Below are positions 11,661 through 44,256 of a DNA stretch of 64,000 nt, one piece after another (the stretch's first letter is position 1; each line of letters opens with the position of its first letter). The translations under genes were made by a program, and so were the position numbers. Under the pieces are notes generated by a model. That model saw nothing but the letters and a program-made list of their open reading frames with translations, was not told the origin of the DNA and ran no database searches. The stretch is from assembly GCA_030390025.1 (NCBI GenBank), contig CM059432.1:3286001-3350000 (forward strand). Reading direction: 5' to 3'. This DNA comes from Squalus acanthias (Eukaryota).

Positions 11661-12194
11661 CCAATAAAAAGACATTAGTTACTATAGCAACAATACCTAC
11701 TCTGGGGTGGTTATGAGCTTATACTGCGCTACAGCACGCAGGTTAATAAATCCCTTCTGCTTGAAGGGATTGTGTGGGTATTTTTTTAATATATTAAACC
11801 CATGAATGTGAGGAGGTTTTAATTTAATGATTCATCTTGAACCAACAAGAGTGCTGAAGGTCGTCCAGAATTTTATGGGGGGGGGGGGGGGTGAAAAAAA
11901 ACAGTACATCTCTCAAAATATTTTCTGCAAACCTTGGACTGGATTTTACCTGAGGAGGCGGGACTGCCGGGAAAATGGCAGAAACTGGGAGCGGGTACCA
12001 ACCCCGCTCCCAACCCGCCTCCGTGCCATCTTTCCGGGAGGCGCAGGGACCGGTCTCCTCGAGGCGGGAAGGGGATTAGAGCCAATTAACTGCCTGTTAA
12101 CAGGTATGATGCGGAGATGCCGATGTTGGACCAGGGTGGCCAAATGTGAGAAGTCGCACAACACCAGGTTATAGTCCAACAGTTTTATTTGAAA

Positions 12195-12231
12195 TCACAA
12201 GCTTTCGGAGCGCTGCTCCTTCGTCAGGTGA
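12195..12231 (-). ncRNA. Minimal type I hammerhead ribozyme motif (family A)
   Basis: Minus strand reads TCAC-CTGACGA-A-GGAGC-AGC-GCTCC-GAAA-GC-TT-GTGA: stem I TCAC/GTGA, CUGANGA box, 5-bp stem II, GAAA box, palindromic AAGCTT stem III. Confidence 0.8.
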
Positions 12232-12342
12232 AGTGAAGAGATGTATATAGACAGAAAGATTAACTGTAGTCGTCTGACATTGTACGCTGCACAGGCATTG
12301 TTCTCTGTCTATATATGCTTTGTCGATTCGTATTCCTTCACT

Positions 12343-12379
12343 TCACCTGACGAAGGAGCAGCGCTCCGAAAGCTTGTGA
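12343..12379 (+). ncRNA. Minimal type I hammerhead ribozyme motif (family A)
   Basis: TCACCTGACGAAGGAGCAGCGCTCCGAAAGCTTGTGA; all core nucleotides present. Confidence 0.8.
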
Positions 12380-13079
12380 TTTCAAATAAAACTGTTGGAC
12401 TATAACCTGGTGTTGTGCGACTTCTCACATTTGTTAACAGGTAGTTAACAGGCAGTTGAGGCTTATCCCCATTTTAGCCCTGCAAGTGCGGGCTTCCCGA
12501 CGGCTGCGAACCTCGCCAGGGTCAGCGAGGCGAGCAGTGGGTTTGCGGAGGTGAGAGGGGTCGAAATGTCCGCTGTGGGAGGTGAGTGATGGGTGCAAGT
12601 GTGGACAGGTAAAGTATGAGAGGTGAGTGTAAAGTGTTGGAAAAAGTTTCCTTACCTTTGCTTCTTTCTGCAGGCTTCAGCCCTTGGGGATCCGGAGGTG
12701 CCTCATCTCAATGGCAAGAGATGGCAGAATGGCTGCTGCATTCTCAGATGCAGCAGCCATCTGCTTTCTGCTGAGGAGAGGGGTTTCTGAGAGCCTTCTG
12801 TGCAAGGGCTCACCTTAGAACAGAGAATGTCAGTGTTTGACAGCTTCTCAAAAAATTTGCGACAGATGAAGCGTCATACGCTGATGTCCTCAGTCACCGG
12901 CTTTCTCTTGATATGGCCGGTAGGTCAAGGTCAATCAAGGGAAAATAGCGTGACGACGTTGAGAGCGGGACTGAAACCCGAAAACCAGCAGTCCTGCCCC
13001 CCAACGACAAAATCCAGCCCCTTTGTACCTATGCCCAGGTGAAAACCCATCTGATGCGCAACTGAGGCAGCAAGCTTAC

Positions 13080-13250
13080 CCTGACCAATTCCTGCGGGAA
13101 AGGACCTCGAGAGTTTTCAGGCACGTTGATTGGAGGGATGACCCAGTCTCTCTTTAGGCGTTTCAGCTGACCCTGGCTCTCTGGCTGGAGCTGTGGAAAC
13201 ACGATGTCTGGAATATTCTGAGGCAGGGCAACACTACTGGACTTCCAGCT
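13080..13250 (-). CDS. cdh2: N-cadherin coding exon, exon 4 equivalent: end of prodomain, furin site, start of EC1
   Basis: Not in the ORF track; translated by hand as [57 protein letters not shown]. Poly-T tract followed by tacAG acceptor, AGG|GTAAG donor. 171 bp, phase 0-0. Confidence 0.93.
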
Positions 13251-14302
13251 CTGTAGATTTACAAAAAAAAAAAATAATTAGCATATTTTAATTATACTAA
13301 ATACATTTGCTTACCGCAGATAACGGGTGACTTTTTTTCTTGCCTTCAGCTCTTCCAGGGCCGAGCTTCTCTTGAATGGGCAAGAGTGTATATTGGGAAT
13401 TCAGGCACGTGCCTCATTTTCCACCCATCCGTTCACCTGAATTCCTGATATCCACGGCCAGCAAGTGAAGCTCTTCACCAAGAGCGAAGAAGAGGGAAGA
13501 GTTATCCGGATAGACGCCACAAATCATAACGTTGCTTGTGGCTGACCAGCTACTACAAACCGCATCCAGTTACAAAATCCTCCTGCATGTTAGAACTTCT
13601 AAATCACCCCCCCCCCGGCCAAAAATAAGTAAAGATTTTTTGCGTCTGTGGGAGGGAGAGAAAGAGCGTTAATGTTTCAGGTCGATGGCCTTTCGTCGGA
13701 ACTGGTAGATGTCAGGAGACTTAACAGCTCTTAAGCGAAGCCTTTGGCCTTTTTTCAACTTCGCAGTTCAGATTGGAGGTGGTAGCCACAAATGGGAAAC
13801 ATGGCCTAGCAGAGGAGGGTTGTCTCTACTGTACAGACCTGGATTTGGGGCCTGCTACTGTTCACAAGGGACTTGGAGGAAAGCGCTTGTATAGCTGCAG
13901 CATGACTTCTAACCCCTTGTATTCTAGTCCTCTAGATTTAAAGGCCAGCATTCCATCAGCCTTTCTGATAATTTTTTGTACCTGTCCATGACATTGATCT
14001 ATGTACCTGGACACCCCACCCCCCCCAAAGTCTCCTTGGACCTCCACTGCTTCTAGCTTTTCACCATTTAGAAAGTAACCCTATTTGCATATCCTTCGAT
14101 CCCTTTCTCCCTCATGTGTTTATCCAGCTTCCCCATGAATGCATCTGTGCTATTCGCCTCAACCACTCCCTGTGGTAGCGAGCTCCACATTCTCACCACT
14201 CTCTGGGTAAAGAAGTTTCTCCTGAATTCCTGATTAGTGACTATCTTATATTTGTGAGAAGCCGCACAACACCAGGTTATAGTCCAACAGCTTTATTTGA
14301 AA

Positions 14303-14339
14303 TCACAAGCTTTCGGAGCGCTGCTCCTTCGTCAGGTAA
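14303..14339 (-). ncRNA. Minimal hammerhead ribozyme motif (family A)
   Basis: Minus strand TTAC-CTGACGA-A-GGAGC-AGC-GCTCC-GAAA-GC-TT-GTGA; stem I is retained through a U-G wobble. Confidence 0.75.
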
Positions 14340-14399
14340 AGTGAAGAGATGCATATAGGCACAGACTATATATGCTGTGCCTATATGCATCTCGTCACT

Positions 14400-14436
14400 T
14401 CACCTGATGAAGGAGCAGCGCTTCGAAAGCTTGTGA
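14400..14436 (+). ncRNA. Minimal hammerhead ribozyme motif (family A)
   Basis: TCAC-CTGATGA-A-GGAGC-AGC-GCTTC-GAAA-GC-TT-GTGA; canonical CUGAUGA, with a G-U wobble in stem II. Confidence 0.8.
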
Positions 14437-17108
14437 TTTCAAATAAAGCTGTTGGACTATAACCTGGTGTTGTGCGACTTCTCACATTTGCCCACCCCAG
14501 TCCAACACCGGCATCTCCACATCATATCTTATATTTATGATCCCTGGTTCTGGTCTCCCCCACAAGTAGAAACATCTTCTCTACGTCTACCCTATCAAAC
14601 CCTTTCATAATTTTAAAGACCTCTATCAGGTCACCCCTCAAGCCTTCCCCTTTCTAGAGAAAGGAGCCCCCGCCTGTTCAGCAGTGGTGTTGGGGGGGCG
14701 GGGGCGGAGAGAGGAGGGAGAAAGAGAAGGAAGAGAAAGAGGGGATTGTTGCTAACTCGGGGAGGAGAGAGAGAAAAAAAACTAGCAATCCGAAACAAAT
14801 ACAAAGCGGTACCAATCGGCATGCGTATTCACATTTAAGGTATAACCTTGTCAGAACTGCAGTACTTAATACTAACACTTCAAAAAAGAATAAATCACAT
14901 TTGCTGAAGAATGGGAATTTAATTGCAGCATTGTTGAATAAAAGAAGTGCAGATGACATTTAGGAATTAGTTAGACGGAATATTTAGGAAAGGCAGTTGA
15001 ACGTTAGCAGATAAGAGGCCTATTCCAACGCACTCCTGGCTGGCCTCCTACATTCCACCCTGTGTAAACTTGAGATCATCCAAAACTCGGCTGCCCGTGT
15101 CCTAACTCGCACGAAGTCCCGTTCGCCCATCACCCCCTGTGCTCACTGACCTACATTGACTCCCGGTTAAGCACCGCCTCGACTTTAAAATTCTCATCCT
15201 TGTTTTCAAATCCCTCCGTGGCCTCGCCCCTTCCTAGCTCTGTAACTTCCTCCAGCCCCACAATCCCCCCCCCGCCACCGAGATATCTGCGCTCCTCTAA
15301 TTCTGCCCTCTTGAGCATCCCTGATTATAATCGCTCAACCATTGGCGGCCGTGCCTTCTGTTGCCTAGGCCCTAAACCTGGAACTCGCTGCCGACGGAAG
15401 TGGTGGAAGCGGAGACACTCAATGTTTTCAAGGGGAGACTGGATAGACACTTGAGGGAAATAAACTTGCAGGGCTACGGGGATAGAGCGGGGGAATGGGA
15501 CTGACTGGATTGCTCTGCAGAGAGCCGGCACGGACTCGATGGGCCGAATGGCCTCCTTCTGTGCCGTTATGACTGACTCCTCTCTACCTCTCTTCCCTCC
15601 TTTAAGACGCTCCTTAAAACCTACCTCTTTGACCAAGCTTTTGGTCACCTGCGCTAATTTATCCTTATGTGGCTTGGTGTCAAATTTTGTGTCTTCAAAT
15701 ACTCCTGTGAAGCTTTACTAGGTTAAAGGCGCTATATAAATACAAGTTGTTGTTATCCATCAAATGCTTACTTCCACCTCGGAGACACTGTCGGACCCAG
15801 ACTCTACCCTTTCCCACATAACCCTTATCCATGGAGTCACCGCTAGTCCAGGGTTCTGGCATGCCTTCCTCGTCAGTCTCCCACCCTCCATTAACGACAA
15901 ATCCTTCAGGACTGCTACTCTTCCCCCGTTCACCCATCACCCACTGAGCTCGCTCACCTGCATTGGCAACGCTTCGATTTAAAAATTCTCATCCTTGTTT
16001 TCAAATCCCTTCACGGCCTCGCCCCCTCCCTATCTGTGTAACCTCCTCCAGCCCTACAACCCAGAGATCTCGGTGCCCCTCCAATTCTGACCTCTTGAGC
16101 ATCCCCGATTTCCATCGCTCCAGCATTGGCGGCCGTGCCTTCAGCTGCCTCGATCACAAGCTCTGGAATTCCCTCCCTAAACCTCTCCGACTCTCTCTCA
16201 TCCTTTTAAACACTCCTATTTTGGTCACCTGTCCTAATATCTCCTTATATGGCTCGGTGTCAAATTTTGTTTGATAATCGCTCCTGTGAAGCACCTTGGG
16301 ATGTTTTACTACGTTAAAGGCGCTGTGTAAATACAAGTTAAACATTTCAGGTCGACGACCTAGGAACAGAAGGAGGCCATTCAGCCCCTCGAGTCTGTTC
16401 CGCCATTCAATAAGATGATGGCTGATCTGTATCTCAATTCCATCTACCTGCCTTGGTTCCGTAACCCTTAATACCCCCTCGCCCAACAAAAATCCATCAA
16501 TCTCAGTTTTGAAATTTTCGATTGACCCCCCAGCCTCAACAGCTCTTTGGGGAGAGAGTTCCAGATTTCCACCACCCTTTGTGTGAAGAAGTGCTTCCTG
16601 ACATCACCCCTGAACGGCCTGGCTCTAATATTAAGGTTGTGCCCCCCCTTGTTCTGGACTCCCCCCACCAGAGGAAATAGTTTCTCTCTCTCTACCTGAG
16701 CAACTCCTTTTAATCATCTTCAGCCTCTCAATTAAATCACTCCTTAATCTTCTACATTCAAGGAATGCAAGCCTAGTCTATGCAACCAGTCCTGATAAGA
16801 TAACCCTTTCAATCATTCTGGTGAATCGGAGGTGTGGGGCCCAGAACTGAACTCAGTACTCTAAATGGGGTCTAACCAGAGCTTTATACAACTGTAGCAT
16901 AACTTCCACCCCCTTTGTATTCCAATCCCCATGAAAGAGAAAGGCCAAGGTTCCATTAGCCTTTTTAATTATTTTCTGTACCTGTCCTCTAGATGCGGAG
17001 ATGCTTTAATAATGAGATGATAGCAAAATACTGCGGATGCTGGAAAATTGAAACAGAAAACGCTGGAAAAACGCAGCAGGCCAGGCAACATCCGTGGAGA
17101 GAGAAACA

Positions 17109-17146
17109 GAGTTAACGTTTCAGGTCGAAACCCTTCGTCAGAACTC
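17109..17146 (-). ncRNA. Minimal type I hammerhead ribozyme motif (family B)
   Basis: Minus strand GAGTT-CTGACGA-A-GGGT-TTCG-ACCT-GAAA-CG-TT-AACTC: 5-bp stem I, intact core, palindromic AACGTT stem III. Confidence 0.8.
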
Positions 17147-17868
17147 AAAGCGTTTTGCTTTAATAACGAGATGGGGTATTGGGTCGGTCATTGTTACAGA
17201 ATGTAGGAAGGGCTTCCTGACATCACTCCTGAACGGCCTGGCTCTAATTTTAAGGTTACGCCTCCCCCCCCACCCCCCACCTTCATCCATCAGAACTGGA
17301 AGACGTTAGCGATGAACAGCTTTTAAGCAATTGCAGAGGCAGGGCAAAGTGGGCAGGGAAAGATCAAAAAGGGAAAGGCCCGTGATTACACGACTAAAGT
17401 GATGATGGTGCAAGGCTAAATTGTTTCAGTTTTGATGCTTGGGGAAAATAGAGTGCGAGAAACTCCAACCTCTCAAAATTCAATAATGTGGTACTTTAAC
17501 ATTGGAAAAAGTCAAAGCAGCTTGCAGCTGCATCACACCATAGCGAGAGTCGAACATGCGCAGCGCCGAACCTACACAGCTGGAGAATTTTAAAGTAGTC
17601 ATGCCTCTTGGCTTTTGATTGCTAATTAACGTACAACCAAGGCAGGCTAAAAATAGCACCTCTTTTTTAAACTGCAGATATAAAGAGTCATCGGAAGTTT
17701 ACGAGCATCATAAAATTTGCTCAATCGAGATTTTAAATATTTACTGATTTCCAACAATGCCTTTTTGGTAGTAAGCCATTTGAATAACATTCGGGTTCCC
17801 GTCATTGAACTAGTAAACAATCTCTGCACAGAACAGCTGGATCGTACACTGTGAGTGTCACCACCACA

Positions 17869-20316
17869 TAGGGTTGCAAAATTCCGAGAATTTTTAAAAG
17901 AGGAAACTTTCCATGGGAATTTATGGGAATTGAGTTTTTTTGCACACTGATGGTTTTTGTCGCTGACCCTTATCATCAAAATAGACATACTGTTCCATAC
18001 AAATAAAAACAGCTTATTTAGCCTGTAATTTGTCCTTATTTTGTCCCTTTGAGTCTTCTGCTCATCATTGCTCCTCCTGATTCTCTGACTCTGGCTCTGA
18101 CGTGTCCATTTCCTCCTCTGTGTCACTGTCTAGCTGTGTGGTGGACACTTCTGTATCTGGCTCAGTAAGTTGTAGGTTCGCCCGGATAGCCACCAGTTTC
18201 TCCACTCTCTCGTTAGTCAGCCTGTTGCGCACCTTTGTATGCGTATTCCCAAAAAGTGACCAGTTTCGTTCAGAGGCCGCTGAAGAAGGTGGGATTTGGA
18301 GTATCGCCGATGCAATGGGTGACAGGGCCTCAGATGCACAAAGTCCCTTCCACCAGGTATGTGCACTGATATGCTTGCATGATTCCCATATCCCGTCCCC
18401 ATTCCAAAGACCTTGCTTGGTAGCGAACTTTGCCAGACTTCCCAGAACTTTGTCCACGTCCAGATTGAGGTGGTGTGAGAGGGTAGAAACCACACTGTAA
18501 GCGCTGTTGATCTGTTCTCCAGAAAGTATTGGTCTCCCAACATGCTTTGGGTCCAGCACGTATGCTGCAGCATGAATCGGCTTGACACAAAATTCTTGAC
18601 GAGTCTGTATGAATTGAACAATTGCCTTCTCCTCTGCTTTGAGCAGCAGGGATGTGGGTAGGGCAATGCTGATTTGTTCTTTTAAATCAGCAAAAAGCCT
18701 GAGAACATCTGACAAGACAGCGTCATCTCCTTCAATCTGAGCAATTGCAGATGCTACTGGTGAGAGTAGTTTAAGGCTGCTAACCACTCTCTCCCAAAAC
18801 ACATCATCCAGCAGTATTTTCTTGATGGTGGTTTCCATATCCCCAGACTGGGATATTGCCATTTCTTGCAGTGACTCCTTACCCTCCAGAAGGCTGTTGT
18901 ACATTATGACAACGCCACCCCATCTAGTGTTGCTGGGCAGCTTCAGTGTGGTGTTCTTGTTCTTTGTCGTTTGCTTGGAGTTGTAGGTTGCTGCAACTAC
19001 CTGTCTTCCCCTGACATACTTAACAACTTGCTTGGCTCTCTTGTACAGTGTTTCCATGGTTCTCAAACCCATGATGTCCTTGAGCAGGTTGTGCCGCGCA
19101 CCCAATAGACGTAATATGAGGGTAGGCCTCCTCCACTTGAGCCCAAGCAGCCTTCATATTCGCAGCATTGTCAGTAACTACGGCAAAGACCTTTTGTGAT
19201 CCAAGATCGTTGATGACCGCTTTCAGCTCATCAGCAATGTATGTGCCTGTGTGTCTGTTGTCCTTCGTGTCTGTGCTCTTGAACACTGGGAGAGGAGTGG
19301 AGACGATGTAGTTTATGATGCCCTCCCCTCGTACATTTGACCACCCATCTGAGATAACTGCAACACAGTCTGCCATCTCTATCGTTTCTTTGAGCTTTCC
19401 TTGGACTCTGTTATACTCAGCCTTCAGCAAATAAGTAGACAAAGCATGTCTGGTGGGAGGACAGCGTGCAGGGCGAATAACATTGAAAAATCTCTTCCAG
19501 TACACATTGGCTGTGAGCATGAGGGGTGAGCCTGTCGCATATACAGCTCGAGCAAGGCACTCATCTGCATTCTTCTGGCTATGGTTATCCATTGTATCAA
19601 AGAACCTTCCAAGTGGGCCAGGAGTTGCTGATGATAAGGAGCCTGATGCTGAATGTGAACCAACATCTTCTTGAATGGAAGCAGAGGAACTCTGGGCTGA
19701 CTGCTGTGAGCTCTGAGTGAAGTTGTTGCATTTGGATAAATGCTGCTGCATCTTTGTGGCATTCTTTACATATAGGTTTGTACAGTGTTTGCACATGTAC
19801 ACAGTCTTTCCATCTTTAATGCCTGGGGTAAAATGCTTCCACACATCCGACAGTAAATGTGGCATTGTTGTATGCAGAGAAATAAAGGGCATTCGTCTCG
19901 GTGTCGAACTGCGGTCGATCAGCACGATTGCAACAGGGTGAGTACATTTTTCCTGATGCTCCATGTGATGGAAGCATGACCTGTGCACGCACGACGCTAC
20001 ATCACCAATAGAGGGAGCTAATCGCTCATCCACCCATCCAACCAATCAGGACACATCTGTTCACAGTCACACACAAAACTTGTAATTATTAAAACAAGCC
20101 AAGAAGATAAACATATATTGATTAAGAAATTCCTTAATAATTAAGATTCCATCTCTGTTAGTAATTTTAAGAGGACGACCTGTGGAAAAAAAAAGAAATA
20201 CAAAAAAAAACAATATTATGCTAGCATGTGCTTTTTTGGGCAAAATTCCCAAGCTAAACTTCCCGTGGAAAATTTCCAGAAATTTACCGGAAACTTTCCA
20301 CCCCTTCGCAACCCTA
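17869..20316 (-). mobile_element. hAT-superfamily DNA transposon, full length (2448 bp)
   Basis: TIRs TAGGGTTGCAAA and TTCGCAACCCTA (1 mismatch in 12). Perfect 8-bp TSD CCACCACA at 17861-17868 and 20317-20324. Subterminal GGAAA/GGGAATT repeats at both ends and an internal transposase. Confidence 0.95.
18065..19865 (-). pseudogene. hAT transposase with one frameshift near 19090
   Basis: BED zinc finger (VWKHF..CKHC..MQQHL..C), SDGWSN, VVTDNAANM, CAA(H), TRWG and C-terminal dimerisation motif PPSSAASERNWS. Split between ORFs 19020-20045 and 18065-19105; likely ATG at 19865 (MPHLLSDVW). Confidence 0.9.
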
Positions 20317-22587: not shown

Positions 22588-23035
22588 AAAAGACTTGCAT
22601 TTCTATCGCGTCTTTCACAACCTCAGGACATCTCAAAGCGCTTTACAGCCAATAAAGTATTTTTTTTTTGAAGTGTAGTCACTGTTGTAATGTAGGAAAC
22701 ACGGCTGCCAATTTGCGCACAGCAAGATCCCACAAACAGCAATGTGATAATTACCAGATAATCTGTTCTTATGTTGATTGAGGGATAAATATTGGCCCAG
22801 GACACCGGGGAGAACTCCCCTGCTCTTCTTCGAAATAGTGGCCATGGGATCTTTTACGTCTTTCACGGGGCCTCGGTTTAACGTCTCATCCGAAAGACGG
22901 CACCTCTGACAGTGCAGCACTCCCTCAGCACTGCACTGGGAGAGTCAGCCTGGATTTTTGTGCTCAAGTCTCTGGAGTGAGACTCGAACCCACAACCTTC
23001 TGACTCAGAGGCGAGGGTTCTGCCCACTGAGCCAC
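22588..23035 (-). mobile_element. DeuSINE (SacSINE1-like)
   Basis: Reverse-complement full-length copy. Confidence 0.8.
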
Positions 23036-24117: not shown

Positions 24118-24495
24118 GTGTTAGCTGTGGCTCAGTGGGTAGCACACTCGCCTCTGAGTCAGAAGGTTGTGGGTTCAAGTCCCACTCCAGAGACTCGAGC
24201 ACAAAATCTAGGCCGACATTCCCAGTGCAGTGCTGAGGGAGTGCTGCACTGTCGGAGGTGCCCTCTTTCGGATGAGACGTTAAACCGAGGCCCCGTCTGC
24301 CCTCTCAGGTGGATGTAAAAGATCCCACGGCCACTATTTCGAAGAAGAGCAGGGGACTTCTCCCCGGTGACCTGGGGCCAATGTTTCCTACATTACAACA
24401 ATGACTACACTTCAAAAAAGATACTTTATTGGCTGTAAAGCACTTTGGGATGTCCTGAGGTTGTGAAAGGCGCTATAGAAATGCAAGTTTTCTTC
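24118..24495 (+). mobile_element. DeuSINE (SacSINE1-like)
   Basis: Head, core and tail present, with an internal deletion. Confidence 0.78.
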
Positions 24496-25839: not shown

Positions 25840-26050
25840 GCTCAGTCTCTCACTGCCCGCTCTTCTGTAATCATCTGGCAGTGTTCTCTGACTATATATG
25901 CTGTGCCTATATGCATCTCTTCACTTCACCTGACGAAGGAGCAGCGCTCCGAAAGCTTGTGATTTCAAATAAAGCTGTTGGACTATAACCTGGTGTTGTG
26001 CGACTTCTCACATTTGTCCACCCCAGTCCAACACCGGCATCTCCACATCA
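25840..26050 (+). mobile_element. Penelope-like terminus (family A), single copy, with a hammerhead motif at 25926-25962
   Basis: Near-identical to the right arm and tail of the 14253-14524 element; contains TCACCTGACGAAGGAGCAGCGCTCCGAAAGCTTGTGA. Confidence 0.75.
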
Positions 26051-27837
26051 CAACACAAGGAGTCACGGCAGGGGCAAGTTAGTGTAAGTATTTAGTTTAT
26101 TGGTTAGTGTTTTCAGTGGCTAGAGTTGATTTTTTAAATAGTGCTTCGAGTTTTTAATAACCGTTCGAGGTTTTTTTTAAACAGTTGAGTTTTTTTTATA
26201 TAAATGGTTGGTGTTTAGTGTTCGCTAAACAGTTAAATCGGCTAAAAGCTAAACAAAGAGCTTGTAATAACTGTTCGTGGACATGGCAGGACAGCTGGAG
26301 CCCGTCCCCTGCACATCCTGTGCGATGTGGGAACTCCAGCACTTTGTGTGCCCTGGAAAACCAGATATGGAGGATGTTTGCTGCCAACTGTTCCGAGCTC
26401 AAGGGGCGGCTGGAGTCACTGCAGCGCTTACGGGAAGCTGAGAGATTTGCGGAGAGCACATTTCAAAAAGAGATAATCACCCCCGCAGCTACAGAGAGTT
26501 CACGGGAGAAGAGGGAGTGGGTGACCACCGGCCAGCCAGCCCAGGAGCAACAGGCAGGAATCCCCTGGGAGTGTGGCACTCGCATTCAGTGCTGAAGACG
26601 GGAGCGAGGGTGACAGAAATCACAGAAATTTCCACAATTCTGTGACGACGCCTCGGGCGGAGTGCAGTCAGGAGCAAATCCATGGCACCGAGAGAGACTC
26701 GGCTACACAAGGGGGCCGCAAGAAAGTGTAGAAATGCAGTTGTTATAGGGGATTCGATAGTCAGGGTGTTAGGACAGACGTTTCTGCAAGCACAGACACG
26801 AGTCCCGAATGGTGTGTTGCCTCCCTGGTGCCAGGGTGAAGGATATCACTGAACGGGTGCAGGACATTCTGCGAGGGGAAGGGGAACAGCCAAAAATCGT
26901 GGTCCATGTTGGAACCAATGACATAGGTAGTGACATGAATCATAGAAACATAGAAGATAGGAGCAGGAGTAGGCCATTCGGCTGATCATCCAAACTCAGT
27001 ACCCTGTACCTGCCTTCTCCCCATATCCCTTGATACCTTTAGCTTTAAGAAATATATCCAACTCCTTCTTGAATATATTTAATGAATTGGCCTCAACTGC
27101 CTTCTGTGGTAGAGAATTCCACAGGTTCACCACTCTCTGGGTGAAGAAATTCTTCCTTATTTCTGTCCTAAATGGCTTACCCCTTATCCTTAGATTATGA
27201 CCCCTGGTTCTGGACTCTCCGACCATCGGGAACATTTTTCCTGCATCTAGTTTGTCCAGACCTGTCAGAATTTTATATGGAATTTCATGTGGAAATGACT
27301 TATGAAATAATACTGGGCGGCCTGCTGGTGGCGCTGTCCAGGGAGAGTATAAATACATGGGCCCAGCTTGCTCAGGACATTCTTTAACAGGAACTAATGA
27401 AGGACACAACTAGATCTCCATGTTGAGAGAGAGTTGATTAAAGCTTTGTTTAATACTCAGACCAAGTGCCTAGTAGTTTTCTTACGTCAGGTAGGTTAAT
27501 GGTTGAGGTCCTACAGGCAGCGTTTCTAAATTTAAAAAAAATTAAAACAGGACCTCAAAAGGTGATAATCTCTTGATTACTCCAGGTGCCACGTGCTAGT
27601 GAGTACAGAAACAGGAAGATAGTGGAGGTGAATGCGTGGCTGGAGAAGTGGTGCAGGGAGGGAGGGCTTCAGATTGCTGGCGCTTTGGGACCAGTTCCGG
27701 GGCAGGCGGGACCTGCACAAGCCGCACCTGAACAGGGCTGGGACCAATGTCCTCATGGGGAGGTTAACGAGTGCTGTGGGGGGAGGGTTTAAGCTAATTT
27801 GGCCAGGGGGAAGGGCACCAGGATGTAGCAGCAGAGA

Positions 27838-32871: not shown

Positions 32872-32908
32872 AGTTAACGTTTCAGGTCGATTAACTTTCA
32901 TCAGAACT
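32872..32908 (-). ncRNA. Hammerhead motif (family B, stem II mismatch)
   Basis: Minus strand AGTT-CTGATGA-A-AGTTAATCGACCT-GAAA-CG-TT-AACT. Confidence 0.6.
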
Positions 32909-34723
32909 GGAAGTTAGAGGGTTTTTTTTAAGCAAGTAGAGGGGCTGGGAAATGGGGGAGGGGAGGGCAGAACAAAAGGGAAGGTCTGTGATAGGGTGGA
33001 AGGCAGGAGAGATTAAGAGACAAAAGGGATGATGGTGCAAGGACAAAAGGGGGTGGCAATGAGACAAGAAATAAAAAATGGGTCCAGAGGACTTGCATAG
33101 AATTACATAGGATACACGGCACAGAAACAGGCCATTCGGCACAACCAGTCCATGCCGGCGTTTATGCTCCACTCGAGCCTCCTCCCGTCTTTCCTCATCT
33201 AAATCTATCAGCGTAACCCTCGATTCCCTTCTCCCCCATGTGCTTGTCCAGCCTCCCCTTAAATGCATCTATACTATTCACTGCAACCACTCCCTGTGGT
33301 AGCGAGTTCCACATTCTCACCACTCTCTGGGTAAAGAAGTTTCTTCTGAATTCCCTATTGGATTTCTTGGTGACTATCTTATATTAATGGCCTCTAGTTT
33401 TGCTCTTCCCCTCAAGTGGAAACACTCCGTGTTTACTCTATCAAAACCGTTCATAATTTTAAAGACCTCTATTAGGTCACCCCTCAGCCTTCTCTTTTCA
33501 AGAGTAATAAAAGAGACTCGTTAAATCTCAAACTTCTTCCAGTCCCGACGAGAGGCCGTCAACCCGAACCTCTGATTCTCTCCCCACAGATGTTGCCTGA
33601 CCCGCTGAGTGTTTCCAGCATTTTCTGTTTTTGTTACAGAAAGTTACAGTTGCTTTGCTTCATACAAAATCCATCATGAATCATCTCCCAGCCCAAAAAT
33701 GGGTTGTTCTGCTCGAGGTGGAAAATGACAAGGACCGCTGGAATTTTCTTGTGTAAAAGGTATCAAGGGCTATTGAGGAAAGGCAGGTAAATGGAGTTGA
33801 GGTTCAGATCTCTGGAATATAGGAGTTTTAAGGGGTGATTTGATTGAGGCTTTCAGGATTTTGAAAGGGATCAATAGGGGAGAAAGCGAGAGAAACTTTT
33901 TTCCGCTGGTGGGGGAGTCATAGAGGCATAACGACATAGAAGGAGGCCATTCGGCCCATCGAGTCCGTGCCGGCTCTCTGCAGAGCAATCCAGTCAGTCC
34001 CATTCCCCCGCTTTATCCCCGTAGCCCTGAAAGTTTATTTCCCTCAAGTGCCTCTCCAGTCTCCCCTTGAAAACATCGAGTGTCTCCACTTCCACCACTT
34101 CCGTCGGCAGCGAGTTCCAGGTCATCACCACTCGCTGCGTAAAAAAGTTTTTCCTCACATCCCCCCCTGTATCTCTTCTAGGACAAGGGGACAGAACCTT
34201 AAAATCAGAGCTAGGCTATTCAGGAGTGAAGTTAGGAAACACTTCTTCACACAAAGGGTGGTAGAAGTGTGGAACTCTCTCCCACAGAAAGGCAGTAGAT
34301 GCTGGGGCTCAACTAATAATTTTTTTTATTCATTCCCGGGATGTGGGCATCGCTGCCAAGACCGGCATTCATTGCCCATCCCCAACTGCCCTCGGAGGCT
34401 GATAATTTTTTTTTGCTAGACAAGGTTATAAAAGGCGATGGAGGCAAGGCGGGTAGATTGAGTTAAGATACAGATCAGCCATGATCTCACTGAATGGCGA
34501 GAACAGGCTCGAGGGGCTGAATAGGCCTCCTCCTCCTGGTTCCTATGAGCCACGGGCTGATAGAATGTGACGGAACAGGTTGGAGGGGCTGAAAGGCTTG
34601 GAGGCCAAGGACAGGAGGTACACAGCGCCATTACAAAGGGCAATGTTGGGGCATTGAAGCTGGAAGACATGCGGAGAGTCCATGAACGCGACACTGTTAG
34701 CGCTAAGTGTTATCACGCGGTAC

Positions 34724-34953
34724 CTTCTGTCCACTGTGCTTGATATTACTTTCATGTCTCACGGTCAGCTTGACAACAGCCTGCCATTGTTCCTGGGTTT
34801 GGGTTTCACGGGCCGTTATCACAAACTTCAACTGTTTCCCGGGGAGGTGAAAGCTTTCTGCCGCGTACACCACACCGTCACGCTGGACCCTGAAATTCGG
34901 GTTGCTCGTTTCGTACTGCACCGCCACGCTTCCATAGCAGTCGTTAAAGCCCA
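34724..34953 (-). CDS. cdh2: N-cadherin (cdh2/cdh2-like) coding exon, exon 3 equivalent, prodomain
   Basis: Encodes (V)GFNDCYGSVAVQYETSNPNFRVQRDGVVYAAESFHLPGKQLKFVITARETQTQEQWQAVVKLTVRHESNIKHSGQK, resembling the CDH2 prodomain. Acceptor ttttccAG|TG, donor AAG|GTAccg. 230 bp, phase 1 to 0. Confidence 0.85.
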
Positions 34954-37270
34954 CTGGAAAAGAAAACAGTGCAACATCTTTAGTTCCCGTGGCATTCAGA
35001 CAGGCCTTCAAAAACCTGCACAAAAAACGTTTGCTGGGCTAGAGGGGAAAGAGCAGCGGGACTCTTTGGAGAGCTCTTTCACAAAGAGCTGGCACGGGCA
35101 CGATGGGCCGAGTGGCCTCCTCCTGCGTTGCATCACACTACGATATTACATGAACATGCGCCCGCCCCCCCACCAACGTTCCCTCTAACCCGCACAGCCC
35201 CGGGACTGGCTTTTCAAATGTGAAATTTCGCGCACATGCGAGACTTTGTATCGGCCGCGCAGCCCGTTAAAGGGACCGCGCTCCCCGGAAAAAAAAAGTT
35301 AATTAGGGGGAAGCATTGGTCCCCACTAACTTAAAAATGCTCACGTTTAAATCAGGCACTCGCTTAAATCGGCCAAAAAAACCCACTAATTATCATACAT
35401 TAAAGTTAATTTCAAAGTTGCTGCTTACAGCGGGTCATTCACTCTGTACTCTGGGCAACATCACGTGTTACTATTGTCATAGAATCTCTCAGCACAGGAG
35501 GAGGCCATTCGGCCCATCGTGCCTGTGCCGGCTCTTTGAAAGAGCTCTCCAATTAGTCCCACTCCCCCTTGCTCTTTCCCCACAGTCCAGCAAATTTCTC
35601 CTTTTCAAGTATTTATCCAATTCCCCTTTTGAAAGTTACTGTTGAATCTGCTTCCACCGCCCTTTCAGGCAGTGCGTTCTCATTTTTTATATCAGATTTC
35701 AGTCGTCGTCCCCACACCCCGCCCCTTTAATGCAGGACAATAGGTTGATTATGGGATAGGCTGTGAGCAACAGATTTCGTAGAGTTTGGAGTGCGTGTCG
35801 GGTACAGCATGGGATCCTTGTGAGGAATGTTGAGCGAGCGAAGCTTTGGAGAAAATCCAGCCTGGAGGAGATAACAAAAAAGGTACGCATAATTCGGTGG
35901 CAGTGACAGCGAGGTACAGGTGGGGTCGTGCCCCGTCTGCTCTCTCAGGTCGATGCAAAAGATCCCACGGCACTATTTCGAAGAAGAGCAGGGGAGTTAT
36001 CCCCGGTGTCCTGGGGCCGATATTTATCCCTCAACCAACATCACTAAAACAGATTATCTGGTCATCACATTGCTGTTTGTGGGAGCTTGCTGTGCGCATA
36101 TTGGCTGCCGCGTTTCCTACATTAAAACAGAACCCAATTCAAAAGTACTTCATTGGCTGTAAAGCGCTTTGAGACATCCTGAGGTCGTGAAAGGCGCGAT
36201 AGAAATGCAAGTCTTTCTTTTTCTATTTTTAACACCAAGATTCCTTAAGGTGCGTCAGTGTCAGCCGCAGGCTCAGTGGGCAGCACCCTCGCCTCAGGTC
36301 AGAAGGTTGTGGGTTCGAGTCCCACTCGAGTGTGAGTTGAGTGCGTAATCTAAGCGGACACTCCAGTGCAGCACTGAGGGTGTGCTGCACTGTCAGAGGT
36401 GCCGTCTTTAGGTATGCTGATAGGGTGAGATGAACGATGGTCGGAGGTCGGCTCGTGTGGAGCATAAACACCGACATGGACCTGTTGGGCCGAATGGCTG
36501 GTTTCTGTGCTGTAAATAGTATGTAAGATGTTTTTTGAAAGAGAGATCTGTATCCGTGGCACCGTGACGGTTCTAGGTTCAGACCTATGCAGGATCCCAA
36601 GATAAAAGGTTGTCAAACTGCACCCTGCCTCGCTTGTAAAGCTAAACCAACAGTAGGAACGTGACCAACTGGATGATGCTCTTCCACTTCCCAAAACACC
36701 GATTAAAATGACGATGTTCTCCTTGCTAACTTAACCTTCAATTTAGGAATGAATAACTCAACACGCGTTCCTCCATCAAAAACAAACCAGGGATCCTCAG
36801 AGACATCGAGTGCCGACACAATGGGTGGAACGTGAAAGTGTTGACCCTCATACTACGGTACACGAAGAGATGGTCAAGTGAAATAATCCGCCCCAATTAC
36901 CTCCCTGGGGTTTCTGAAGGTTATGACTCCTTGCTCCAGCAATTCTGGCCTCTTGCGCATCGGATTTCCATCGCTCCACCATTGGCGGCCGTGCCTTCAG
37001 CTGTCCAGTTACCAAGCTCTGGAATTCCCTCCCTAAACCTCTCCTCCTCGCAACCTCTCTCTCCTCCTTTAAGACGCTCCTTAAAGCGTCTGCCTCTTTC
37101 ACCAAGCTTTCGGTCACCTGTCCGGATATCTCCTTATGCGGCTCAGTGTCAAATCTTGCTTGCTTAACTCTCCTGTGAAGCGCCTTGGGACGTTTTACTA
37201 CGTTAAAGGCGCTGTATAAATACAAGTCGTTATTGTTGCTGGGATATGATCCCATCAACATCAAACGTCG

Positions 37271-37416
37271 CCAATGTTCCCTTGGATTTTCCTTTTGGGT
37301 GCGCGGCCCATTCAAATTCCAGCGCAAGCGCGGTTATTCCTATTGTAAAGCCGGTAAGCAGCCTGTGCGGGAGCTCCAGACAGCTGTGCGGCCGAGCAGC
37401 TTAACGGGAACATTGG
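37271..37416. mobile_element. Short MITE family with CAATGTTCCC/GGGAACATTG TIRs (probably hAT-mobilised)
   Basis: Perfect 11-bp TIR in this copy. Related copies at 28837-28973, about 32255-32383, 35173-35318, 48830-48945, 55141-55289, 55486-55554 and 63518-63650. Some have 8-bp-like duplications (TTATGGG, GTGGGAGG). Confidence 0.75.
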
Positions 37417-38621
37417 TCATCCCACAACTAGCCGTTATTTTAGGTCAGTGTTGGTCGCAAGTGTCATCAGGAGCTTTTACTTTCTTTTACAACTTGACAG
37501 CTTCCCCTTTCCACCCCCCCCCCATCATCCCACCAATTCCCGGCCACACAACAATGCCTCGTCCAAGTGGCCAAGCTAAATGTGCAAGCCTGGAGCAATC
37601 AATCGCTTGCTCGAAAACCTTCAACCGTGACGACATCAAAGTCAAACCAGAACCAGTCATCAAACAGCATCCACCTACTCGCCTTTCAAGAGTCGCAAAT
37701 AGGTGTCAAGAGCAGGAACCTTGGCCTGATGTTTCTCCACCCCCAACACAGGCAATTCGTGACCAATTCAAGCACACCCACTGATTCCCAGCCGAGATGA
37801 GTCCACTTGCTCGGCACAGAGGACTGAACCAGAGATCCTTCTAGTTCATGAAAGAAAGACTTGCATTTCTACAGCGCCTTCCACGACCACCGGACGTCGC
37901 AAAGCGCTTTACAGCCAATGAAGTACTTTTTGAAGTGTAGTCACTGTTGCAATGTGGGAAACGCGGCAGCCAATTTGCGCACAGCAAGCTCCCACAAACA
38001 GCAATGTGATAATGACCAGATAATCTGTGTTTGTTATGTTGGTTGAGGGATAAATATTGGCCAGGGCATGGTCCATTTTCCACCAAGTTATTGGGGTAAC
38101 AATCAGATGAAAAGCTCAAAGTTCAATTACAATATATTGCTTAAACTTAGCTGTGGAGTTATACAGTCACAACAAAACAACCTGCATTTATATAGCGCCT
38201 TTAAACGTCCCAAGGCGCTTCACAGGAGCGATTATCAGACAAAATTTGACACCAAGCCACATAAGGAGATATTAGGACAGGTGACCAAAAAGCTTGGTCA
38301 AAGAGGTAGGTCTTAAGGAGCGTCTTCAATGAGGAGAGAGAGGAAGAGAGAGGCGGAGAGGTTTAGGGAGGGAATTCCAGAGTTTAGGGCCCAGGCAGCT
38401 GAAGGCACGGCCGCCAATGGTGGAGCGATGGAAACCAGGGGATGGTCAAGAGGCCAAATTAGTATTGAGAGGGAGGAGGTACTAGCGGTTTTAGCGGACT
38501 TAAAAGTGGATAAATCCCCAGGCCCTGACGGGATGTATCCCGGGCTGCTGTGTGAGGCAAGGGAGGAGATTGCAGGGGCTCTGACACAAATTTTCAGAAC
38601 CTCTCTGGCCACAGGGGAGGT

Positions 38622-38846
38622 CAAAATTGAGAGGTCGCACAACACCAGGTTATAGTCCAACAGTTTTATTTGAAATCACAAGCTTTCGGAGCTATCGATT
38701 TGCTCCTTCCTCAGGTGACCTGAGGAAGGAGCAAATCGATAGCTCCGAAAGCTTGTGATTTCAAATAAAACTGTTGGACTATAACCTGGTGTTGTGCGAC
38801 CTCTCAATTTTGTCCACCCCAGTCCAACACCGGCATCTCCGCATCA
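38622..38846. mobile_element. Penelope-like terminus (family A variant), perfect palindrome inserted in CR1 ORF2
   Basis: 95-bp perfect arms at 38622-38716 and 38718-38812 around one G, plus a tail to 38846. TSD CCACAGGGGAGGT at 38609-38621 and 38850-38862 (16 bp with one mismatch if extended). Splits the CR1 peptide SLATGEV/PEDWRTANV. Confidence 0.85.
38676..38718 (-). ncRNA. Minimal hammerhead ribozyme motif (family A, expanded loop 2)
   Basis: Minus strand TCAC-CTGAGGA-A-GGAGC-AAATCGATA-GCTCC-GAAA-GC-TT-GTGA. The mirror copy on + at 38716-38758 has a shortened stem I. Confidence 0.75.
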
Positions 38847-40529
38847 TGACCACAGGGGAGGTGCCAGAGGACTGGAGAACAGCTAACGTAGTACCATTGT
38901 TCAAGAAGGGTAGTAGGGATAAACCAGGGAATTACAGGCCAGTGAGCCTAACATCAGTGGTAGGGAAATTATTGGAAAAAATTCTGAGGGACAGAATCAG
39001 TCTCCACTTGGAGAGGCAAGGATTAATCAGGGATAGTCAGCATGGCTTTGTCAGGGGGAGATCATGTCTAACCAATTTGATTGAATTTTTCAAGGGGGTG
39101 ACTAGGTGTGTGGATGAGGGTAGTGCAGTTGATGTAGTCTACATGGACTTCAGTAAGGCTTTTGACAAAGTCCCACATGGGAGACTGGTCTAGAAGGTAA
39201 GAGCCCACGGGATCCAAGGCAATTTGGCACATTGGATCCAAAATTGGCTTAGTGGCAGGAGGCAGAGGGTGATGGTCGAAGGTTGTTTTTGTGACTGGAA
39301 GCCTGTGTCCAGTGGTGTACCACAGGGATTGGTGCTGGGTCCTTTGCTGTTTGTAGTGTACATTAATGATTAAGATATGAATGTAGGAGGTATGATCAGT
39401 AAGTTCGCAGATGACACGAAAATTGGTGGAGTGGTAAATAGCGAGGAGGGAAGCCTCAGGCTACAGGACGATATAGATGGGTTGGTCAGATGGGCAGAAC
39501 AGAATTTAACCCTGAAAAGTGTGAGGTGATGCATTTTGAGAGGACAAACAAGGCAAGGGAATACACAATGAATGGTAGGATCCTAGGAAGGACAGAGGGA
39601 CCTTGGTGTGCATGTACATAGATCCCTGAATACAGCAGGACAGGTAGATAAGGTGGTTAAAAAGGCATATGGGATACTTATATTCTATGCCTCGGCTAAT
39701 GAAGGCAAGAGCCAGGGAGGTTATGATGGAGCTGTACAAAACGCTAGTTAGGCCACAGCTGGAATACTGTGTGCAGTTCTGGTCGCCACACTATAGGAAG
39801 GATGTGATTGCATTGGAGAGGGTGCAGAGGAGATTCACCAGGATGTTACCTGGGCTGGAGCGCTTCAGCTATGAAGAGAGACTGGACAGGCTGGGGTTGT
39901 TTTCCTTCGAGCAGAGAAGGCTGAGGGGGGACCTGATTGAGGTGTACAAAATTATGAGGGGCAAAGATAGGGTAGATAGAAAGGAACTTTTCCCTTAATA
40001 GAGGGGTCAATAACCAGGGGGCATAGTTTCAAGGTAAGGGGCAGGAGGTTTAGAGGGGATTTGAGGAAAAACTTTTTCACCCAGAGGGTGGTTGGAATCT
40101 GGAACTCACTGCCTGAAAGGGTGGTAGAGGCAGGAACCCTCACAACATTCAAGCAGCATTTAGATGAGCACTTGAAACGCCATAGCATACAAGGCTACGG
40201 ACCAAGTGCTGGAAAATGGGATTAGAATAGACAGGGCTTGATGGCCGGCGCGGACACGATGGGCCGAAGGGCCTCTTTCTGTGCTGTATAACTCTATGAC
40301 TCTAATTGGAACATAGAAGTGTTGTAAAAGCTACAATTTTTGAAATTAAACTGACAGTCTCAACACAGAGAGAGTTAGGAGCAAATGTCAAAATCGGAAG
40401 GCCTCGTGGTAAAGGTTATTTATCTTGACTTTACAGGAAAAAAGGAATACGGCACACAATTTAGGTCATGTAATATGCAAAGTGTGCTGGCAGTACAGTG
40501 AGGGAATTCTAGAAACAAAGGATGGGGAG

Positions 40530-40611
40530 GGAGCGGGGCAGGCAGAGGGAGAGCGCGCGGGGCAGGCAGAGGGAGAGCGCGGGGCAGGCAGAGGGAGAGC
40601 GCGGGGCAGGC

Positions 40612-40673
<62 letters not shown>
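40530..40673. repeat. GGGGCAGGCAGAGGGAGAGCGC minisatellite (about 3 units) followed by (GA)n
   Basis: Directly visible tandem units adjoining an L2 fragment. Confidence 0.9.
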
Positions 40674-40677
<4 letters not shown>

Positions 40678-41506
40678 AGACAGAGGGGGAGAGAGGGTGA
40701 GAGAGAGGCAGGGAGAGGTAGAGAGGTTTAGGGAGGGAATTCCAGAGCTTGGGGCCTGGGCGAATGAAGGCTCGGCCGCCAATGGTGGGGCGATGGAAGT
40801 GGGGGATGCGCGAGAGGCCCGAGTCGGAGGAGCGCTGAACGGTCTGCTTGCAGAAGGACCCCAGCCAACACAATAAATTAAAAATAGCAATTGCACAAGC
40901 AATTATCAGAGGCGCACTTGAAAAGGAGCAGACTTTGGGGCTGTGGCTGAGGAACTGCAGGCGTACACACTGTCCGGCTAAGTGTAACCCATTAACCCTG
41001 CGTGAATTCCTCACTACAAAAGCATTCTTAAAGTTCAGGTTGTGTGGAGCAGAATTACCTTATGGCCCTGAGAGTGCATTAGCATTCTTATTTATAACTT
41101 GAAATGACAGCGGGAGACCGCAGACAATTTGTCAGCTTGTTCTGGTACACACCGCTCTTAAAGAGATTTAACTTTGAAGTTACACAGCGTATCATCTAAA
41201 TTATTACACGTTGCCATCATCCCGTAATCCAATGTACTACAGTGTGCGTTAAAGCAGGCAATTAAATTCTCTGGCCTGTGGTTTCCATTGGCGTGCGGCT
41301 TAATTAAATTGTAATCAGCTCTGCTTTTGTTAATGAGATGAAAATTGGGAATCCACGGGCAGTCTCATTTTCTTTTCAGCGTCTTGCAGCCTCATCCCAC
41401 AACTCTCGAGGCCTCGGCGCTATAGCGCCATCGGATGAGACAACAATGGCACCGGGGACAAGGCCTCTGTAGATGTACAAAAAACAGTGACTGTGCAGGT
41501 CGCGCG

Positions 41507-41549
41507 CACACACACACACAAACAAACACACACACACACACACACACAC
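41507..41549. repeat. (CA)n microsatellite
   Basis: Interrupted CA repeat. Confidence 0.95.
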
Positions 41550-43676
41550 AAACAAAACCAGCAGTCAGCAGTACAAGCTACAATTGCTACCGAGTCAATA
41601 ATGACATTCATTTGTTATACTCCTGCCTTTTTCCCCAACCCCCCACCCCACCACCTACTTTCCCCAAATACCCCACTGCTTTCTCGTAACCACAACAGAG
41701 AATTTGCAGAAAACCTCAAGCTTGCAGTTGCTTTATTTATTTATTTTTTTTAATAGAAAGGGAAGGGAATCACTCGCGAAATCACGAGTGCGAGCCCTGA
41801 AACGGTTTCCCGGGACACAGCGCAGAAAACTCGCTGACACGCTAGACTGAGTGATTTCTGGATTAAATGCTGTCGCGGGCATTTTGCTTTGCTCTGCTGC
41901 CTGATTTTCTCTCTTTTGTTGAGCGGGAGCTACACAAATCCCTCAGCGCTGACATCTGCATCAGTTGGCCGGGGGGGTGGGGGCTACTGTGAACAGTAGC
42001 TTTAATTCCGCATCACCGAGCAGGCCTACCAGGAGTATTGTAGTATCGATAACCCAACACCAAGCTGAAACACGAGCAGCTGAAACACAAGCAGCTTAAA
42101 AAAAAACACACAACGTGCTCGAGCTACTAAAGGACAAAACACAGGAACAGGCTGGAGGGCCATTCAGCCCCTCGAGCCTGTTCCGTCACCGAGTTAGACC
42201 ACGGCTGATCTGTATCTTAACCCCAGCTACCCGCCTTGGTACCGTCACCCTTTGCCTAACAAAAATCTATCAATCTCAGGTTTTGAAATTTTCAATTGAC
42301 CACCCCCCCCCAACAACTTTTGGGGAGGGAAAGAAAGTTCCAGATTTCCGTTCCCCTTTGTGTGAAGAAGTGCTTCCTGACATCACCCCTGAACGGCCTG
42401 GCTCTAATTTTAAGGTCCTGCCCCCTTGTTCTGGACTCCCCCCACCAGAGGAGATAGTTTCTCTCTCTCTACCCTATCAACTCCTTTAATCATCTTAAAC
42501 ACCTCGATTAGATCACCCCTTAATCTTCTATATTCATGGGAATAAAAGCTCAGTCTATGCTATTTAATAATTTCACCCTTTTGGCCCGAGTATCATAAAA
42601 CCTTACTGGTCAACTGGGGCACAAGTCAGCTGATGATCAACATATGAGCATCTTTCACTCAAACAATGAAGTATGTGATCTATTTATATCTGTGTTACAA
42701 ATACACTGTGAATGTATTTTGCCAGCAGAAATGACAATAGCATTATGTAAATCAGTGGGCATAGATGAGAATAGAGGAAGGAAGGTTTACAGATTTTACA
42801 AAGTGCCTTTAACGTAGTAAAACGTCCCAAGGCCCTTCCACGGGAGCGTTGTCAAACAAAATTTGACACCGAGCCACATAAGGACCTAACCAAAAGCTTG
42901 GTCAAAGGAGGTAGGTTTTAAGGAGCGTCTTCAGGGAAGTGAGGGGCGGAGAAGGTTTAGGGAGGGAATTTCGGAGCTCAAGGCCCAGGCAACTGAAGGC
43001 ACGGCCGGCACTTGAGCATCCCTGATTTTCATCGGTCCACAAGAGACCAGAATTGGAGGAGCGCAGAGATCTCGGGGGGTCGTGGGGCTGGAGGTGGTTA
43101 TAGAGATGGGGAGGGGGGCGAGGCCCTGGAGGCATTTAAAAAAACGAGGATGAGATTTTAAAATAAAAAATAAATCAGAAAATGCTGGAAACACTCAGCG
43201 GGTCCGGCAGCATCTGTGGAGAGAGAGAGACAGTTGACGTTTCAGGTCGCTGACCACCTCTGCCATTTTCTCGGGCGGCTGGTGCTGTGATGGCGGACGG
43301 CTGCACCTGAGCCGCTGGGAGTGGAGGAGGTGTGAGCTGGTGCCTGTGGTAGGGGATCCCAAGCATGGGGTGGGTCCGCACCCCTGGAGTCTACCCTCCT
43401 TTCTCTGCCACATTCCTGGGCACGGGGGCGTCCTCCTCTTTCCCAGATTGTACATGCTTCCCTTCCCTCCTCTGCTATTCTGCTGTAGCCATTTCCAGCT
43501 CCTCTGGGCCCATCTTTGTTTCTCTACGTGTCCCGTCGCCTCCCCATTTGGCCCTCGCACCATCATCCCTTTTGTCATCTAATCACTCCTGCCTTCCACC
43601 CAATCACAGACCTCCTCTCCTCCAACACGTCTTTTTCCCCAGGCTCTGCACTTGTGTTAAAAACGGTGTTAAAAAC

Positions 43677-44256
43677 ATGGCGAGACCATGCAGACACTGA
43701 GACAACGTATGAACGGACACCGCGCAACAATCGCCAGGCAGGATTGTTACCTCCCAGTCGGGGAACACTTCAGCAGTCAAGGACATTCAGCCTCGGATCT
43801 GCGGGTTAGCGTTCTCCAAGGCGGCCTTCGAGACACACGACAACGCAAAATCATCGAGCAAAATCATCATAGCCAAGTTCCGCACCCATGAGGATGGCCT
43901 CAACAGGGATCTCGGGTTCATGTCACGCTACAGAACGTGACTCGACATCGTTGTCTGTCTTTCCAGTTTTTAAAAAAACACCAAAAAAAAGTTAAAAGCT
44001 CAACTGCAGACGGCAACATTTGACACGTTGGACCCCCTGTGACCCACCTCATTGTCTTAGCTGTACTCTGATGTGTCTTTGATGTAATGCCTCCCTAACA
44101 GATTGTATCTCTGCAGACAAATTGCTCTCTGTGTATATATACTGTGTAATAGATTCCCTCACTGTACCTTTACCCGACGAAGGGGCAGCAGCTCCGAAAG
44201 CTCGTAATTTTAAATAAAACTGTTGGACTATAACCTGGTGTTGTGCGACTTCTCAT
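43677..44256 (+). mobile_element. 5'-truncated Penelope-like retroelement: GIY-YIG endonuclease C-terminal remnant plus 3' region with hammerhead
   Basis: Peptide GETMQTLRQRMNGHRATIARQDCYLPVGEHFSSQGHSASDLRVSVLQGGLRDTRQRKIIEQ, then (frameshifted) IAKFRTHEDGLNRDLGFM, typical of PLE GIY-YIG. Ends in the family A terminus. TSD TTGTGTTAAAAAC at 43652-43664 and 44257-44269. Confidence 0.85.
44170..44207 (+). ncRNA. Hammerhead motif (family A, diverged; core U4C change)
   Basis: TTAC-CCGACGA-A-GGGGC-AGCA-GCTCC-GAAA-GC-TC-GTAA; compensatory stem I change from TCAC/GTGA to TTAC/GTAA. Confidence 0.65.

Follow-up and report, generated by a model that had tools for sequence, protein, structure and literature searches.

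Eight minimal hammerhead ribozyme motifs (family A) lie in a 64,000-nucleotide stretch of Squalus acanthias DNA (contig CM059432.1, positions 3,286,001 to 3,350,000; hereafter the window), the minus strand of which carries part of the cadherin gene cdh2. With a probability of roughly 0.85, we read them as marks of dead, 5′-truncated insertions of a high-copy, Neptune-type shark Penelope-like element (PLE), in the active masters of which selection keeps the hammerhead, most likely to cut the element's own RNA; the copies in cdh2 would be passengers. A first-pass annotation, made from the letters of the window, had proposed a PLE origin and a shark host, and both are upheld: one target-site duplication (TSD) brackets a GIY-YIG endonuclease remnant together with a hammerhead, and the remnant has shark homologues that join reverse transcriptase (RT) to GIY-YIG.

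Eight hammerhead motifs in five insertions

All eight motifs named in the first-pass annotation are present, coordinates and strands included.

12195..12231, minus strand: minimal hammerhead in sense orientation to cdh2; cleavage predicted after 12199
12343..12379, plus strand: minimal hammerhead, predicted cut after 12375
14303..14339, minus strand: minimal hammerhead in sense orientation to cdh2; helix I contains a U-G wobble
14400..14436, plus strand: minimal hammerhead with U at N7; helix II contains a G-U wobble
25926..25962, plus strand: consensus-like minimal hammerhead; cleavage predicted after 25958
38676..38718, minus strand: minimal hammerhead, 9-nt loop II, sense to cdh2
38716..38758, plus strand: minimal hammerhead, 9-nt loop II; the junction cuts helix I
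44170..44207, plus strand: divergent hammerhead, U4C, CUC site, helix I compensated (C-G to U-A)

A descriptor made up of the core, one extra nucleotide, helix II and GAAA-NN′-UH matched ten sites in the window, the eight family-A copies plus two belonging to a second family; in 200 dinucleotide shuffles it matched 0.005 sites on average and never more than 1. The minimal type I anatomy that had been claimed is borne out, since every copy has the extra nucleotide that separates position 9 from position 10.1, the G10.1-C11.1 pair and an AGCU palindrome (15.1-16.1) with no helix III loop. The CUGANGA core and the AAGCUU palindrome, however, had been ascribed to all copies and hold for seven of the eight; the 44170 copy reads CCGACGA (U4C, at 44174-44180) and AAGCUC, with a CUC site. 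In the 38716(+) copy, the fold-back centre interrupts helix I and leaves 2 contiguous pairs. An Rfam scan of the window returned 15 unrelated matches at E up to 10 and zero hammerhead models; the microRNA-like matches are the inverted pairs listed below.

As independent evidence the eight copies fall short: they reduce to five insertions, namely three head-to-head inverted pairs and two solo copies.

12107..12431, no single strand: insertion 1, head-to-head inverted pair of pseudo-long-terminal-repeat (pLTR) ends; 12-bp TSD at 12095-12106 and 12432-12443; tail on left (minus) arm
14254..14524, no single strand: insertion 2, inverted pair; 12-bp TSD at 14242-14253 and 14525-14536; tail on right (plus) arm
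25865..26050, plus strand: insertion 3, solo tailed pLTR end in antisense orientation to cdh2; covered by family contigs over about 25865-26050
38622..38849, no single strand: insertion 4, perfect fold-back pair centred on 38717; 13-bp TSD at 38609-38621 and 38850-38862; tail on right arm
43677..44256, plus strand: insertion 5, 5′-truncated PLE (C-terminal part of GIY-YIG, 3′ untranslated region, pLTR end without tail), antisense to cdh2; 13-bp TSD at 43652-43664 and 44257-44269

Thus four of the five insertions carry TSDs (12, 12, 13 and 13 bp), and insertion 5 has an extra 11-bp copy of its own at 43666-43676. At the 25.9-kb solo copy, zero flanking repeats of at least 7 bp were found in the windows searched. 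The palindromic centre of insertion 2 overlies a TATA-like motif, the target of insertion 4 is a fragment resembling the RT of a long interspersed nuclear element (LINE), and insertion 5 struck an element of the second family (B), homology to which flanks both sides. The arms within a pair differ at 0 of 97 (insertion 1), 5 of 111 (insertion 2) and 0 of 95 (insertion 4) aligned positions. Upstream of helix I, the arms of insertion 1 diverge (12232-12262(-) against 12294-12346(+)), with the TATA-like motif 15 nt closer in one; these arms may derive from different templates.

Each arm can be described as a 3′ pLTR end, which would comprise TATA- and initiator (Inr)-like motifs, the minimal type I hammerhead, a spacer of about 55 nt and an optional 35-nt tail. 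The tail is present on exactly one arm in all three pairs and on four of the eight arms overall. In the consensus-like copy, the outer parts are placed as follows.

25893..25927, plus strand: TATA-like and initiator-like motif upstream of helix I, a putative pLTR promoter
26016..26050, plus strand: optional 35-nt 3′ tail, delimited by contig ends in four public sequence runs

Link to Penelope-like elements

The coding evidence comes from insertion 5.

43679..43937, plus strand: GIY-YIG endonuclease remnant, frameshift near 43862; tblastn 90% identity to residues 559-642 of protein P0005, E 7e-36

This remnant had been placed directly upstream of one hammerhead. A single TSD does bracket both, but 237 nt separate the end of the remnant from C3 of the 44170 copy. 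The first 61 residues matched 45 proteins among 68 candidates, the best six at 84-92% identity, and the named sources of the best relatives are Heptranchias, Scyliorhinus, Mustelus and Chiloscyllium. The GIY-YIG assignment rests on these homologues; Pfam did not recognise the 61-aa and 25-aa pieces. Two relatives, P0005 (90%) and P0026 (70%), carry RVT_1 upstream of GIY-YIG, of which the window keeps the endonuclease end alone. Both also contain a C-x4-C-x2-C linker, and C505 and C510 are nearly invariant in the alignment of relatives. A CX2-5CxxC linker is reported to mark Neptune and Nematis, not Penelope/Poseidon (Craig et al. 2021, PMC8557442). The element is probably of the Neptune type, a clade assigned by the linker motif alone, with the linker taken from the relatives and absent from the truncated window copy. 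The Neptune clade and the shark family have in common a C-terminal GIY-YIG after the RT, the CX2-5CxxC linker, an inverted 5′ copy, a one-sided tail, a pair of cysteines preceding the YIG motif and, further on, a pair of histidines (PMC8557442). This GIY-YIG segment also occurs inside several shark RefSeq isoforms of the host genes XRCC5, septin 5a, FAM210B, PPP1R12A, IQCK, FSTL5 and USP8 (proteins P0006, P0009, P0017, P0021, P0035, P0039 and P0042), and would represent exonisation or an annotation artefact.

The family is very abundant. Whole or in part, the 25860-26052 stretch is found in 24 public runs of 13 studies, 16 of them with half the words or more; four of the 24 were analysed and yielded 5913, 31076, 2360 and 2824 contigs. 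These data are contigs, not raw reads, and contig depth serves as a rough weight. Loose contig ends with mixed flanks occur at 26047-26052 in all four runs and, among the rows listed, at 26012-26015 in three of four, marking the two PLE 3′ termini, about 35 nt apart. Exact-pattern scans of viral and metagenome contigs gave 0 loci, and profile scans gave 211 and 62 pattern matches, none of which was confirmed.

Two 3′ termini separated by a tail are likewise reported for the Anolis Poseidon element PAc (Frangieh et al. 2024, PMC11167929). In the shark family the tail ends 113 nt past the start of helix II; in the anole element reverse transcription starts 111-118 nt after the start of the open reading frame (ORF), which coincides with the start of helix II. 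PAc belongs to another clade, and whereas its ORF starts at helix II, the shark copies have no ATG after helix II. Shark family contigs continue with TG after the tail, likely forming a start codon. Unlike those of PAc, the shark TSDs are not all AT-rich.

By analogy with other PLEs, the GIY-YIG enzyme would nick its target with a 12-13-bp stagger, and reverse transcription would start at either of two sites that lie about 35 nt from each other, so that some ends are tailed and others untailed. The head-to-head pairs, the products observed here, would arise when insertion aborts early and a second, oppositely oriented copy is added, and the inverted arm could come from two-ended priming or self-priming. 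Inverted pLTRs, one-sided tails, TSDs and junction palindromes are described PLE traits (PMC8557442, PMC3846280), and the shark family offers young, TSD-bounded footprints of PLE integration.

Probable selection on the hammerhead and its putative role

To weigh selection on the motif, we used variants that reach at least 10% in any of the analysed runs, among the 40 of 51 variant rows listed. They affect 0 of 33 core and helix positions as opposed to all four free positions (N7 and loop II; p=1.5e-5), and three of the four free positions when CpG changes are left out (p=5e-4), positions not being independent in these p-values or in those that follow. Decay at CpGs affects G12 at 8-10% and C11.1 at 9% in two runs, which argues that most genomic copies decay neutrally. 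U4C accounts for 5.5% and 7.7% of depth in two runs and is thus a shared variant, and a G-to-A change in helix I stands at 3-8%. Copies with U4C, which possibly form a subfamily with an altered core, recall a viroid hammerhead in which the same change reportedly made the ribozyme much slower without ending its function in vivo (PMC3088659). Of the helix changes in the eight copies of the window, one is two-sided and three are wobbles; the mismatch in the 38716 copy was gapped by the aligner.

Several results weigh against the preferred reading, that is, a PLE hammerhead maintained for cutting its own RNA. A check of whether core positions are better conserved than their surroundings speaks mostly for the first-pass reading, through the variants inside the motif, but the contrast with the flanks is weaker when the whole covered flank is taken (18 of 149 positions, p=0.02), and p rises to 0.10 if one of the 11 other rows fell in the core. 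A flank bounded by the outermost listed variants gave p=0.0005, a choice judged post hoc, and the whole covered flank stands in its place. The eight window copies show no significant covariation, 152 of 500 shuffles scoring as high. The link to GIY-YIG is direct for the divergent 44170 copy alone, to which the other seven are tied by 82% identity over 140 nt. On the side of catalysis, CUU belongs to the weakest class of cleavage triplets (PMC8879150), and the best dimer found by ViennaRNA differs from the hammerhead dimer, at -30.5 versus -19.5 kcal/mol for a partial version, as the full hammerhead dimer cannot be written as a nested structure. The anole PAc ribozyme, finally, is dispensable in vitro, and no RNA-seq ends were found at the PAc site (PMC11167929).

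Cleavage in active masters would be slow, because helix III depends on a partner, cleavage of related minimal hammerheads as dimers is weak (PMC4209133; review PMC6765202), CUU is a weak site and the predicted folding does not favour the dimer. It would take place in a dimer formed by way of the AGCU palindrome or else with the help of the element's protein, and would most likely fall about 36 nt after a putative transcription start. Four of the eight copies, from three insertions, have TATATA at -37 and an Inr-like motif at -9 from C3, and the spacing is constant despite 8 differences in the 21-nt spacer between the 12343 and 25926 copies. A similar layout is reported for a rotifer pLTR (PMC3846280). 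By this analogy, the layout suggests that the ribozyme shortens the element's own RNA by a leader of about 36 nt; if so, the family would be a convenient system for the in vivo role of slow PLE ribozymes. A sigma-70 promoter scan gave a chance-level result and was set aside as irrelevant to a eukaryote.

A stronger version holds that the pLTR is a compact TATA-Inr promoter from the transcript of which cleavage removes a capped leader of about 36 nt, and that the ribozyme is active enough in host pre-mRNA for antisense or hairpin-masked copies alone to persist in shark introns. Were it true, PLE hammerhead activity could be read in vivo, across the genome, from the strand bias of solo versus paired copies. 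We regard it as tentative and rather unlikely. Neither of the two solo family-A copies is sense to cdh2, too few to judge a strand bias, and an unopposed family-B hammerhead in sense orientation, 17114(-), weighs against a general purge of sense copies.

A further alternative accepts the PLE but supposes that the hammerhead-shaped motif no longer cleaves and is kept as a protein-binding or promoter-proximal structure. The weak CUU site agrees with this, as do a possible A14-U17 pair that would lengthen the palindrome (the 6-bp form is 2.6 kcal/mol more stable), the share of U4C in two runs (5.5-7.7% of depth) and insertion by PAc in vitro without its ribozyme. Common variants are absent from the catalytic positions, however, whereas they are free to occur at N7 and in loop II; weak cleavage does take place in dimers of related minimal hammerheads, and the PAc hammerhead cleaves with protein; and U4C reduces viroid function without abolishing it. 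Loss of cleavage accordingly strikes us as improbable.

It is more improbable still that the short copies form a self-propagating non-autonomous family, akin to retrozymes or to the palindromic units of miniature inverted-repeat transposable elements, in place of abortive PLE insertions. Four of the five insertions lack coding sequence, three are TSD-bounded palindromes, and animal retrozymes have been reported as PLE derivatives. Yet the three palindromes differ in centre and length and carry the tail on either arm, the window has no head-to-tail tandem arrays, and one copy retains the end of an ORF. Non-LTR retrozymes (bioRxiv 10.64898/2026.07.22.740005) share with the shark family a type I hammerhead and descent from PLEs, but they are head-to-tail tandem units, whereas the window shows solo and head-to-head copies alone. 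The same preprint lists type I hammerhead repeats for one chondrichthyan.

The motif itself has clear precedents. Minimal hammerhead ribozymes (min-HHRs) in the pLTRs of metazoan PLEs have been known since Cervera & De la Pena 2014 (PMC4209133), and they have in common with the shark copies the type I form, CUGANGA plus one extra nucleotide, G10.1-C11.1, a short helix I, palindromic 15.2-16.2 without loop 3, U-rich 5′ and AU-rich 3′ flanks, and opposite-strand copies 100-700 bp apart. The Chrysemys (turtle) entry shares GAAAGCUU, and the lamprey entry shares helix I. Judged by sequence, the motif matches the 2014 consensus point by point, in an arrangement long described; the recurring U4C variant sets the shark family apart from the min-HHRs in the compared part of that paper. 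No shark row stands in the portion of its supplementary alignment compared, and "shark" and "Callorhinchus" have no match in supplement file 2. Penelope elements have been recorded in the whale shark (PMC8455134). Our literature search found no paper on the hammerhead of this shark family; PMC6155905 uses "shark" for a ribozyme shape. PLE minimal hammerheads are thus extended to a very abundant shark family.

Relation to cdh2 and other features of the window

Exon-like stretches on the minus strand match the Pfam Cadherin_pro and Cadherin domains, and the best PDB matches of one of them are to Cadherin-2 (E 3.8e-34, versus 1.8e-20 for Cadherin-1).

34741..34953, minus strand: cdh2 prodomain exon, Pfam Cadherin_pro E 2e-17; lower boundary approximate
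13080..13230, minus strand: cdh2 exon with the propeptide cleavage site and the start of EC1; upper boundary approximate
11016..11172, minus strand: cdh2 EC1 exon, Pfam Cadherin; lower boundary approximate

The first-pass annotation had placed all copies in cdh2 introns. The host gene is supported as cdh2, and five copies do lie between exons found here: insertion 1 within the intron 13079-11173, and insertion 2 and the 25.9-kb solo copy in the interval that separates the 34.9-kb exon from the 13.2-kb exon. Upstream of the first cdh2 exon found are the remaining three, at 38.7 and 44.2 kb, which would be intronic by inference; a crude motif search found no next exon upstream of 35.1 kb.

With cdh2 on the minus strand, three copies are sense to it, all of them arms of inverted pairs, while both solo copies are antisense. 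The sense copies sit in hairpins of about 100 bp, and transcription reaches the antisense arm before them. Predicted folding energies of the pairs are -201 to -225 kcal/mol, with a hammerhead helix probability of 0.000 on both strands; the isolated 25926 motif, as a 47-mer, folds helices I and II with probabilities of 0.85-0.99. Hammerhead cutting of cdh2 pre-mRNA is thus unlikely, because the sense copies are masked in hairpins and the solo copies are antisense; any suggested action on cdh2 finds no support, and the five insertions would be passengers that leave the pre-mRNA uncut. Domestication for cdh2 pre-mRNA processing, as proposed for conserved intronic hammerheads of amniote genes, could appeal to the three sense copies in its introns, but with all three sequestered by an earlier-transcribed antisense arm, insertions that look young (arm differences of 0, 0 and 5) and a very abundant family that decays at CpGs including G12 (8-10% in two runs), its chance is close to negligible. 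Nothing here points to a new RNA class or to cdh2 regulation.

Family B, the second pLTR family, has a minimal hammerhead with an ACGU palindrome at 17114-17141(-), 57316-57344(+) and 32876-32904(-), the 17114(-) copy being unopposed and sense to cdh2. Remnants of the family lie at 1-70, 13651-13727, 33520-33621, 43182-43259 and 44267-44298. A cdh2 intron also holds an apparently young hAT DNA transposase at 18065-20045(-), with two long overlapping frames (DUF659 and Dimer_Tnp_hAT). Positions 3885-4384 are a 500-base assembly gap. A below-threshold match to a microRNA model falls at 60127-60280, where what appear to be two LINE 3′ ends form an inverted repeat of 35 bp around an 84-nt loop.

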